Below are positions 9,553 to 12,804 of a DNA stretch of 64,000 bases, piece after piece. Below the pieces are notes generated by a model. That model saw only the letters and a list, made by a program, of their open reading frames with translations. It ran no database searches and was not told the origin of the DNA. Numbering within the stretch: position 1 is the stretch's first letter; every line of letters begins with the position of its first letter. A program made the translations under genes and the position numbers. Source of the stretch: Escherichia coli (GTDB lineage Bacteria; Pseudomonadota; Gammaproteobacteria; Enterobacterales; Enterobacteriaceae); NCBI RefSeq assembly GCF_013122565.1, contig NZ_CP053258.1, one strand, 5' to 3'.

Positions 9553-10638
9553 ATGTTCAAGCGTCGTTATGTAACATTGCTTCCCCTTTTTGTGTTGCTT
9601 GCCGCCTGTAGCAGCAAGCCAAAACCTACTGAGACTGAAACGACCACCGGAACGCCGTCTGGCGGCTTCCTGCTTGAGCCGCAGCACAATGTGATGCAGA
9701 TGGGCGGTGACTTCGCCAATAACCCGAATGCTCAGCAGTTCATCGACAAAATGGTGAACAAACACGGTTTCGATCGTCAGCAGTTGCAGGAAATTCTCTC
9801 CCAGGCGAAACGTCTGGATTCGGTACTGCGGCTGATGGATAACCAGGCACCAACCACATCGGTGAAACCGCCATCAGGTCCGAACGGCGCATGGCTGCGT
9901 TATCGCAAAAAATTTATTACGCCGGACAACGTGCAGAACGGTGTGGTTTTCTGGAATCAGTATGAAGATGCGTTGAATCGCGCGTGGCAGGTGTATGGCG
10001 TACCGCCGGAAATTATCGTCGGGATTATCGGCGTTGAAACCCGCTGGGGGCGCGTGATGGGGAAAACTCGCATCCTCGATGCGCTGGCAACGCTGTCATT
10101 TAACTACCCACGCCGCGCGGAATATTTCTCTGGCGAGCTGGAAACCTTCCTGCTGATGGCGCGCGACGAGCAGGACGATCCGCTCAATCTGAAAGGTTCC
10201 TTTGCCGGGGCGATGGGCTACGGACAGTTTATGCCGTCGTCTTACAAACAATATGCGGTAGATTTCAGCGGCGACGGGCATATCAACCTGTGGGATCCGG
10301 TTGATGCGATCGGTAGCGTGGCGAATTATTTCAAAGCGCATGGCTGGGTGAAAGGCGATCAGGTCGCGGTAATGGCAAACGGTCAGGCTCCAGGCTTGCC
10401 AAATGGCTTCAAAACCAGGTACAGCATTTCGCAGCTTGCTGCGGCAGGTTTAACGCCACAGCAGCCGCTGGGCAACCATCAACAAGCCAGCCTGCTGCGT
10501 CTGGATGTTGGAACAGGTTACCAGTACTGGTACGGTCTGCCGAACTTCTACACCATTACCCGTTATAACCACAGCACCCATTACGCAATGGCGGTCTGGC
10601 AGTTAGGACAAGCCGTGGCGCTGGCGCGCGTGCAGTAA
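9553..10638 (+). CDS. mltB: membrane-bound lytic murein transglycosylase B (lipoprotein)
   Basis: Start moved to ATG 9553 (MFKRRYVTLLPLFVLLAACSS), which gives a lipoprotein signal with LAAC lipobox; the ORF-track start at 9448 lacks it. Confidence 0.9.
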   Translation: MFKRRYVTLLPLFVLLAACSSKPKPTETETTTGTPSGGFLLEPQHNVMQMGGDFANNPNAQQFIDKMVNKHGFDRQQLQEILSQAKRLDSVLRLMDNQAPTTSVKPPSGPNGAWLRYRKKFITPDNVQNGVVFWNQYEDALNRAWQVYGVPPEIIVGIIGVETRWGRVMGKTRILDALATLSFNYPRRAEYFSGELETFLLMARDEQDDPLNLKGSFAGAMGYGQFMPSSYKQYAVDFSGDGHINLWDPVDAIGSVANYFKAHGWVKGDQVAVMANGQAPGLPNGFKTRYSISQLAAAGLTPQQPLGNHQQASLLRLDVGTGYQYWYGLPNFYTITRYNHSTHYAMAVWQLGQAVALARVQ

Positions 10639-10645
10639 CTATTTG

Positions 10646-10680
10646 CAAGAGGGGGGTTAAACTTCCCTCTCCTTTCTTAC
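10646..10680. terminator. putative bidirectional stem-loop after mltB
   Basis: agaggg...ccctct stem followed by a T-rich run; lies between convergent mltB and the small minus-strand ORF. Confidence 0.4.
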
Positions 10681-10916
10681 TGTTTATTCGAATTACGTAA
10701 TTGCTTGATTTTTTTCGACAGCGATATCGCATATCCCAGGCAGACAACGCCTAATGCAGCCTGGCCGAAGTCGAAAGGTTCAAGATAGCCAGAAGATAAA
10801 ATTTTACATACCACTGCAACCAGGGCGCTGACGCCGCCAATGGTGACCCACATGCGCATTTGCGTAGTCTGTTTGAGCACGTTTTGTGGGGGGTTATCCT
10901 TTTTCTTTGTTGCCAT
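10677..10916 (-). CDS. small predicted membrane protein (about 79 aa), function unknown
   Basis: Start chosen at MATKKK, preceded on the minus strand by a GGGAGAG Shine-Dalgarno at about 7 nt; two hydrophobic helices (WVTIGGVSALVAVVCKIL, AALGVVCLGYAI). I do not recognise it as a named gene. Confidence 0.45.
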   Translation of the reverse strand: MATKKKDNPPQNVLKQTTQMRMWVTIGGVSALVAVVCKILSSGYLEPFDFGQAALGVVCLGYAISLSKKIKQLRNSNKQ

Positions 10917-11097
10917 TGCTTTTCTCTCCCTGTGAATACATATCAATGTGAACGCGGCATGGTAGCCTTTTTTCTTTACCGGTTGGTCGTAACAGTCTTA
11001 TTTCGGAATGCGACTCGTAAAATGAATCGCTCGTCCCCATCTTCTGCGGGAAAGTGCTATCTTGTCCGGCATAAATTTTTGACTGACAGAGGTTGTG

Positions 11098-11595
11098 ATG
11101 ACTGACAGTGAACTGATGCAGTTAAGCGAACAGGTTGGGCAGGCGCTGAAAGCCCGTGGCGCAACCGTAACAACCGCTGAGTCTTGTACCGGCGGTTGGG
11201 TAGCGAAAGTGATTACCGATATTGCCGGTAGCTCCGCCTGGTTTGAACGCGGATTTGTCACCTACAGTAACGAAGCCAAAGCGCAGATGATCGGCGTACG
11301 CGAAGAGACGCTGGCGCAGCATGGCGCGGTGAGCGAACCTGTCGTGGTGGAAATGGCGATAGGTGCACTGAAAGCGGCTCGTGCTGATTATGCCGTGTCT
11401 ATTAGTGGTATCGCCGGGCCGGATGGCGGCAGTGAAGAGAAGCCTGTCGGCACCGTCTGGTTTGCTTTTGCCACTGCCCGCGGTGAAGGCATTACCCGGC
11501 GGGAATGCTTCAGCGGTGACCGTGATGCGGTGCGTCGTCAGGCTACTGCGTATGCATTGCAGACCTTGTGGCAACAATTTCTACAAAACACTTGA
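11098..11595 (+). CDS. pncC: NMN amidohydrolase (CinA-like domain)
   Basis: 165 aa starting MTDSELMQLSEQ; the ORF-track start at 11095 is a GTG one codon upstream of this ATG. Immediately upstream of recA. Confidence 0.9.
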   Translation: MTDSELMQLSEQVGQALKARGATVTTAESCTGGWVAKVITDIAGSSAWFERGFVTYSNEAKAQMIGVREETLAQHGAVSEPVVVEMAIGALKAARADYAVSISGIAGPDGGSEEKPVGTVWFAFATARGEGITRRECFSGDRDAVRRQATAYALQTLWQQFLQNT

Positions 11596-12736
<1,141 letters not shown>

Positions 12737-12756
12737 TCGTCTGGTTTGATACTCAA

Positions 12757-12786
12757 GGGTCGCATCTGCGGCCCTTTTGCTTTTTT
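12757..12786 (+). terminator. stem-loop plus T-run between recA and recX
   Basis: gggtcgcatctgcggccc hairpin followed by ttttgctttttt; consistent with partial termination before recX. Confidence 0.5.
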
Positions 12787-12804
12787 AAGTTGTAAGGATA
12801 TGCC

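Follow-up and report, generated by a model that had tools for sequence, protein, structure and literature searches.

The proteins MgrB, AcrZ, MgtS, SafA, and YmgF are small inner-membrane modulators. They occur in enterobacteria, are conditional and dispensable, and their transmembrane (TM) helix packs with larger proteins; the majority have one TM helix only. The protein described in this study is similar to them in size and membrane location, but has no sequence relationship to them. Small membrane proteins are poorly charted and the knowledge of them comes almost entirely from K-12; the present gene exposes a blind spot.

A Salmonella orthologue of this gene is already flagged computationally in the literature as STsORF92 (PMC10117436). 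In S. Typhimurium SL1344, it occupies 2,999,268-2,999,513 on the plus strand and encodes 81 aa (Venturini et al. 2020, Microlife, Table S1, PMC10117436). Its prediction came from sPepFinder alone; Ribo-seq did not call it, it was classed as 'independent; no TSS, low transcription', and the listing states that it has no counterpart in E. coli MG1655 (PMC10117436). All of its Ribo-seq and RNA RPKM columns are '#N/A', i.e., no RNA was detected (Table S2, PMC10117436), and neither RNA nor footprints were found in LB, SPI-1, and SPI-2 conditions (PMC10117436). In dual RNA-seq of HeLa infection, its changes were not significant (FDR 0.63-0.96), and TraDIS gave a log2FC of 0.01 with an FDR of 1 (PMC10117436). 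Ribosome occupancy, which the first-pass annotation had named as a check on the gene, has so far been negative for the Salmonella orthologue in these three growth conditions (PMC10117436). A literature search on the gene returned nothing beyond this paper and PMC10268841, and the name STsORF92 has not been reused.

By its coordinates, STsORF92 lies where the ORF studied here does, with pncC (ygaD) and mltB on either side; the order pncC-ORF-mltB is directly visible in other S. enterica contigs. The two proteins share the predicted hairpin and the motifs described below, with approximately 50% identity as measured on near-identical Salmonella alleles. STsORF92 differs in its tail (…HLQAENQPKKP) and in a SoxS-bound marbox in codons 10-15, which has no counterpart in the window. 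Judged from the Salmonella orthologue, expression of the gene in standard laboratory and infection conditions would be nil or very low.

The window, i.e., the whole stretch of 64,000 nt of Escherichia coli contig NZ_CP053258.1 analyzed here, shows the local order srlE-srlA, mltB (+), ORF (-), and pncC (+)-recA (+)-recX (+). The DNA belongs to E. coli sensu stricto, as a 4-kb piece of it showed 95-99% identity to 5421 of the 5426 complete genomes. Both mltB and pncC lie on the plus strand, and the PGAP annotation of nearly identical E. coli records confirmed which genes they are. The spacer that hosts the ORF is 456 bp long, from the mltB stop at 10638 to the pncC ATG at 11098 (upstream GTG at 11095). 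A minus-strand ORF of 79 codons with a GGGAGAG ribosome-binding site had been proposed in this spacer, and the coordinates bear it out. The ORF covers 10677-10916 on the minus strand, with 79 codons from the ATG at 10916-10914 to the TAA at 10679-10677, and its product is MATKKKDNPPQNVLKQTTQMRMWVTIGGVSALVAVVCKILSSGYLEPFDFGQAALGVVCLGYAISLSKKIKQLRNSNKQ. The Shine-Dalgarno (SD) sequence GGGAGAG is located at 10924-10930 (minus strand), 7 nt (AAAAGCA) before the ATG. The best explanation as a whole is a real and old gene, probably near-silent and dispensable, whose product would be a hairpin with both termini inside (N-in/C-in) and perhaps of the modulator type; we give it a probability of about 0.8.

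The length of the ORF was compared with chance expectation. In 5000 mononucleotide shuffles of the 456-bp spacer, an ORF that started with ATG and had 79 codons or more appeared in 6.5%, and in 12.8% when any start codon was allowed. The length alone is not significant; thus, the case for a gene rests on conservation.

Homologues were searched with phmmer and profiles in very large protein collections, and this family alone was matched. Its members were found in a subset of E. coli, in E. albertii, E. fergusonii, E. marmotae, E. whittamii, and cryptic Escherichia clades, in many Salmonella enterica serovars and subspecies (81-82 aa), in several Citrobacter, and in Pseudocitrobacter and Kluyvera. 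The window protein matched Citrobacter-type members in phmmer at E = 4e-16 to 1e-9, and the family profile matched the Salmonella, Citrobacter, and Pseudocitrobacter members at E = 1e-25 to 1e-36. With a profile of the Kluyvera/Pseudocitrobacter branch, more distant members were not recovered. The core alignment is gap-free across genera, with 23-55% amino acid identity to the window protein. R21, G28, and L60 are invariant across the family alignment. Motifs that recur across the family are LKQ..(L/M)R ahead of helix 1, GG within that helix, P(F/Y)D in the loop, LG..CLGY within helix 2, and K...L(R/K) in the C-terminal tail. The window protein shows full-length similarity to the family, the position upstream of pncC-recA, and the layout of 77-83 aa with two helices and basic tails. 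Natural length variants are in frame. The family member P0005 has three additional codons, and in the Salmonella members P0041, P0051, and P0054 an in-frame CLG repeat is gained (GCLGCLGCLGY, +6 aa) or lost (-3 aa), which changes the length of helix 2.

By tblastn, E. albertii, Citrobacter FP75, Kluyvera, and two Pseudocitrobacter loci each showed a homologue in the corresponding location upstream of pncC. Wherever the DNA could be read, they are divergent from pncC-recA and lie approximately 180-200 nt upstream. In Kluyvera, the left neighbour of the ORF is a metal ABC transporter instead of mltB, with pncC still adjoining. In Pseudocitrobacter, no mltB was found within 2.5 kb upstream of pncC, and the ORF still adjoins pncC. 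Since the ORF stays by pncC where mltB does not adjoin it, its stable partner is pncC and not mltB. The family is unnamed, is restricted to Escherichia, Salmonella, Citrobacter, Pseudocitrobacter, and Kluyvera, and is always placed divergently upstream of pncC-recA. The gene dates back at least to the split of these five genera, and it is intact in lineages of clinical importance, namely the pandemic E. coli clone ST131 and Salmonella enterica.

The differences between alleles are distributed as in coding DNA. Between the window and the ST131 allele, 7, 3, and 10 differences fell on codon positions 1, 2, and 3, respectively; between Citrobacter and Salmonella the counts were 22, 10, and 40, and in the Pseudocitrobacter pair 17, 12, and 23. 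The order third > first > second was seen in every pair compared. The Nei-Gojobori dN/dS was 0.15-0.35 within Escherichia, 0.10 for Citrobacter versus Salmonella, and 0.33 for the Pseudocitrobacter pair. In Fisher tests of synonymous versus non-synonymous changes, p was 0.005 for Escherichia, 8e-13 for Citrobacter-Salmonella, and 3e-4 for Pseudocitrobacter. Synonymous sites are saturated between genera (dS of about 2 or more), including Citrobacter versus Salmonella. A purine-rich SD-like run precedes the ATG in all five genera, and the remaining leader has diverged.

The first-pass annotation had looked to conservation and dN/dS across Enterobacteriaceae as a check, and the result was favourable: the frame was kept in five genera with dN/dS of 0.10-0.35. 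Its suggestion of a genuine, unnamed small membrane protein gene was thereby strengthened, by the conservation of frame and position in five genera, the coding pattern of codon positions, the dN/dS values, and the conserved SD. Comparison of the sequences shows 10677-10916 (minus strand) to be a genuine, vertically inherited protein-coding gene under purifying selection.

The same DNA might be kept for a non-coding role, with the ORF incidental to it. Such a role would be far-upstream regulation of pncC, or stress-induced antisense to the 3' end of mltB. The non-significant length of the ORF (6.5% of shuffles) and the lack of mRNA or footprints for STsORF92 (PMC10117436) are in keeping with this reading, as is a SoxS site in S. 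Typhimurium. There, a SoxS ChIP-seq peak lies inside STsORF92, centred at 2,999,313 with the marbox GCACAAACTGAAACA, and was assigned to 'ygaD' (Table 1, PMC10268841). The same marbox sequence is given as a class II promoter labelled 'mltB' (Fig. S1, PMC10268841), and from the class II definition the start site would be approximately 80 nt into the ORF, on the strand of the ORF (estimated; PMC10268841). However, the marbox, which is present in a Salmonella locus (L090, 3030-3044), is missing from the corresponding positions of the window (approximately 10872-10889), and no Rfam match was found in 10300-11700. Synonymous sites are saturated between genera, yet the protein alignment is gap-free at 23-55% identity, the third > first > second pattern holds in every pair, and the SD and ATG are conserved. 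In addition, K-12 deletes the whole segment and keeps the pncC-proximal block, so pncC does not need the segment. An incidental ORF is therefore hardly credible. In S. enterica LR134141.1, srlA was split into two gene calls (105 and 86 aa; L090 4618-5149), and it is probably a frameshifted pseudogene.

The flanks of the ORF were searched for regulatory elements. A G+C-rich hairpin at 10648-10670, i.e., the mltB terminator, begins 6 nt past the ORF stop. It has a 10-bp stem with a T-rich tail on the plus strand only, and is conserved in K-12. This hairpin probably serves both convergent genes, mltB and the small ORF; its use by the ORF is what we infer. The 5' flank of the ORF (10917-11005, minus strand) is absent from K-12, has diverged between genera, and contains no recognizable promoter. 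Upstream of the ORF, no match to the sigma-70 consensus and no marbox were found in the window. The ORF leader showed no stable RNA structure (z = 0.63) and no SD-sequestering fold, and neither inverted repeats of note nor relevant complementary repeats (9 nt or longer) were found. A LexA-like sequence, CTGT-N8-ACCG at 10980-10995, was rejected; it has one mismatch, its centre is rich in GC, and the ST131 allele does not conserve it.

The pncC-proximal block (11006-11094, plus strand) is kept in K-12 and is reported as context only. Its identity is 89/90 within Escherichia, and 77 of 87 aligned positions are equal to Salmonella. It is probably the pncC promoter or leader and not a part of the small gene. 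The block is almost invariant from Escherichia to Kluyvera. In pncC orientation, it reads CTCGTAAAAT-N12-CCCCATCT, then TGCTATCTT, and resembles a sigma-32 type promoter (-10 CCCCATNT).

The ORF was carried by 573 of the 5426 complete E. coli genomes, at one place per genome in all 573, i.e., in single copy. Of these carriers, 555 had an allele that occurs in ST131 strains (e.g., EC958 and JJ1887), and 17 had a window-like allele (at least 99%); carriers appear to be mainly ST131. Sixty carriers were sampled, and all of them had the full 240 nt in a single piece, on the chromosome, and with a hypothetical-protein CDS. The earlier idea that such a gene had been missed in annotation thus did not hold, as PGAP annotates the ORF in 60/60 sampled carriers. 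The products are listed as 'hypothetical protein', i.e., WP_000201679.1 in CP61_Sichuan (97% identity to the window protein) and WP_000985460.1 in ST131 (e.g., EC958_RS15035; 87% identity). They are the same gene at the same locus, and the differences from the window ORF are allelic alone. Across the family, the source names are 'hypothetical', 'uncharacterized', or 'membrane protein', and the sole exception is one automatic 'Holin'.

In K-12, O157:H7, and most other E. coli, the spacer is 144 bp instead of 456 bp. A segment of approximately 312 bp is missing from K-12, O157:H7, and approximately 89% of complete E. coli genomes. The lost segment is bounded by imperfect direct repeats of 11-12 nt, TTATT(T)CG(G)AAT. 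In the window, the left copy is TTTATTCGAAT at 10683-10693 (plus strand), overlapping the last ORF codons, and the right copy is TTATTTCGGAAT at 10998-11009 (plus strand). In K-12, one hybrid copy remains, TTTTTTCTGAAT, and the conserved block proximal to pncC comes after it (K-12 spacer, locus L003 3040-3183). From the repeats, the loss of approximately 312 bp looks like a deletion by illegitimate recombination. Because the gene stands at this site in Salmonella and Citrobacter, K-12 represents a deletion and not the ancestral state. The gene is ancestral at the pncC locus and was lost repeatedly. The ORF has no name because K-12 lacks the gene, and the family would have been overlooked since K-12 deleted it; ST131, all other Escherichia species examined, and most Salmonella have kept it. 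At least one genome, PapM-32-1, shows yet another structure, which matches query positions 398-531 alone.

Natural alleles differ at an A7 run at 10709-10715 (minus strand), in codons S67-K68-K69-I70. The run is a hotspot for frameshifts, from which three alternative C-terminal tails result. The window allele (KKKDNPP) had an exact match in one NCBI assembly contig and one read-assembly contig. The A8 (+1A) allele ends in ...SKKNQAIT, is common in E. marmotae, and also occurs in some E. coli and E. fergusonii. The A6 (-1A) allele continues as ...SKKSSNYVIRINS... and reads antisense into mltB, with products of 110-119 aa. Some of these frameshift alleles may be homopolymer sequencing errors. 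Frameshifts or stops in close relatives had been named beforehand as evidence against the gene. Frameshift alleles do exist at the A7 run, but they concern only the C-terminal tail, and the core is intact. Residues 1-69, including both helices, are spared.

These alleles bear on the possibility of a decaying relic, i.e., that the ancestor was functional and that the gene is drifting to a pseudogene in Escherichia, including the window. Loss from approximately 89% of complete E. coli genomes would fit such decay, together with A7 frameshift alleles that are fixed in E. marmotae and present in some E. coli and E. fergusonii, and truncated variants in read-assembly data. However, the window copy is intact, the 60 sampled E. 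coli copies (of 573) are all full-length with a CDS, and the frameshifts leave residues 1-69 and both helices untouched. Within Escherichia, dN/dS is 0.15-0.35, and the non-synonymous changes fall significantly short of expectation. A relic is therefore very unlikely. The gene would nevertheless be dispensable, because it was lost repeatedly, carries A7 frameshift alleles, and showed no TraDIS phenotype in Salmonella.

Two hydrophobic segments were found in the protein by the Kyte-Doolittle (KD) 19-residue mean, for which the usual TM cut-off is 1.6. Predicted TM helix 1 (residues 22-40, MWVTIGGVSALVAVVCKIL; 10797-10853, minus strand) has a KD mean of 2.03 and carries the GG/small-residue motif with the invariant G28. 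Predicted TM helix 2 (residues 48-66, FDFGQAALGVVCLGYAISL; 10719-10775, minus strand) is moderately hydrophobic and glycine-rich. It contains the invariant L60 and the nearly invariant L55 and G56, and is marginal, with a KD of 1.45 that is under the cut-off. Between them lies a conserved acidic and aromatic loop motif, SSGYLEPFDFGQ (residues 41-52; 10761-10796, minus strand), and its P-(F/Y)-D core was seen in the alignments in most family members. AlphaFold2 predicted two long helices, 10-42 and 47-77, with moderate confidence (mean pLDDT 65, pTM 0.34). Read from the sequence, the basic residues are in both tails and the acidic residues are in the short loop. The basic N-terminus and two TM helices of the first-pass annotation were thus recovered, with the second helix as the weaker one. 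The product (77-83 aa) would be an inner-membrane helical hairpin whose two basic tails face the cytoplasm (N-in/C-in) and whose short loop, acidic and aromatic, lies in the periplasm. The loop was placed in the periplasm by the positive-inside rule and the charge distribution.

Known families were searched for relatives of this protein. In Pfam, the best hit was IncE with 13.9 bits against a cut-off of 27, and no holin model matched. In NCBIfam, the best was PspM with 11.7 bits against a cut-off of 80. PADLOC gave no match for the window protein and a chance GajA match (E = 0.055) in another member. The PDB sequences gave no match. The fold search of PDB returned generic helical hairpins alone (best E = 1.8), and that of BFVD returned no relative (best E = 0.56). 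The sub-threshold matches to IncE, PspM, DUFs, GajA, and PnuC-like proteins (the last at E = 0.077 in one member) are of the composition type and were treated as chance. No relatives were found in 50,697 phage records, except two tiny unannotated fragments, or in IMG/VR. A plasmid origin was also rejected; the single match was a 728-kb Salmonella 'plasmid' record, which is probably chromosomal.

One family, PHROG phrog_1129 'holin', showed a weak but near full-length match, with E = 0.008 for the window protein and 0.001 at best. This match raises the possibility of a holin- or toxin-like protein, whose glycine-rich helices would oligomerize and permeabilize or depolarize the inner membrane, and which would be silent because it is harmful. 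It could descend from a phage lysis gene, as a remnant, or represent an orphan toxin similar to GhoT or to the type I toxins. The predicted layout, in which two TM segments leave both termini inside and the C-terminal tail is highly basic, is that of class II holins; this likeness, including the charged C-terminus, is generic and not diagnostic. A UniRef entry names the E. whittamii orthologue 'Holin', and the helices are rich in small residues. The gene is also apparently silent, patchy in distribution, and often frameshifted. Against these points, phrog_1129 was matched by 5 of 29 members, i.e., at most six near-identical Escherichia sequences and few or none outside Escherichia, and relatives in phage records (two tiny fragments aside), IMG/VR, and BFVD were lacking; holin homology was therefore rejected.

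The gene context is also unlike that of class II holins. A phage homologue, the context of a lysis cassette next to an endolysin, and a dual start are all missing in the window gene, which has a stable chromosomal position across genera and lies in the core chromosome in all of them. The gene does not lie in a prophage, and its strand carries no endolysin. The neighbouring mltB is a convergent core gene, and it is absent beside the ORF in Kluyvera. Type I toxins are shorter than 60 aa with a single TM segment and are often multi-copy, whereas the window protein has 79 aa, two helices, and a single copy. Type I loci also have a neighbouring sRNA, antisense or divergent, that is complementary to the toxin mRNA, and a leader that sequesters the SD. 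No SD-sequestering structure, no complementary neighbouring repeat, and no PADLOC match were found for the window gene, although an unannotated sRNA may be present. Purifying selection on the tails and loop suggests specific contacts. A holin- or toxin-like protein is thus unlikely.

Binding to a specific partner is favoured, because constraint falls on specific positions of both tails, the loop, and the small-residue faces of both helices and not on hydrophobicity alone. The protein may be a conditionally expressed accessory subunit or modulator of a larger inner-membrane protein. Its small-residue helix faces and conserved loop would pack against this larger protein, by analogy with MgrB, AcrZ, MgtS, and YmgF-type small proteins. 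Given a real protein, this mechanism is tentative, with somewhat less than an even chance. We rank it as more likely than non-specific membrane damage by a self-assembling holin- or toxin-like protein, which would be the second choice. The A7 frameshift alleles, the CLG gains and losses in helix 2, and the repeated gene loss show that cells readily do without the gene.

The gene belongs to an ordinary but genuine small-protein family, which is already catalogued and uncharacterized. It is doubtful that the ORF is the E. coli representative of a never-studied Enterobacteriaceae small inner-membrane family that is a stress-conditional modulator, e.g., under SoxS, or is tied to pncC-recA. The link to SoxS and oxidative stress is hinted at by the Salmonella ChIP peak. 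The tie to pncC-recA, i.e., to NAD salvage or DNA damage, is suggested by the pairing that is kept where mltB is no longer the neighbour. If an inducing condition and a partner were found, the gene would add one more membrane modulator, as well as a marker that separates E. coli lineages.

Two further observations were made on the alleles and the locus. The ORF of the ST131 allele differs from that of E. albertii NBRC 107761 by 1 nt in 240, with no synonymous difference, and by 20 nt from that of the window. In the surrounding 3.3 kb, ST131 and E. albertii share 96.5% identity, and the near-identity of the ORF therefore suggests inter-species recombination at the locus. In several genomes with the window-like allele, the recA-recX spacer is approximately 240 bp (L001 5139-5380, L004 942-1180, and L006 944-1181). 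In the window (12737-12804) and in K-12 it is 69 bp, and the former genomes have an extra insertion of approximately 170 bp.
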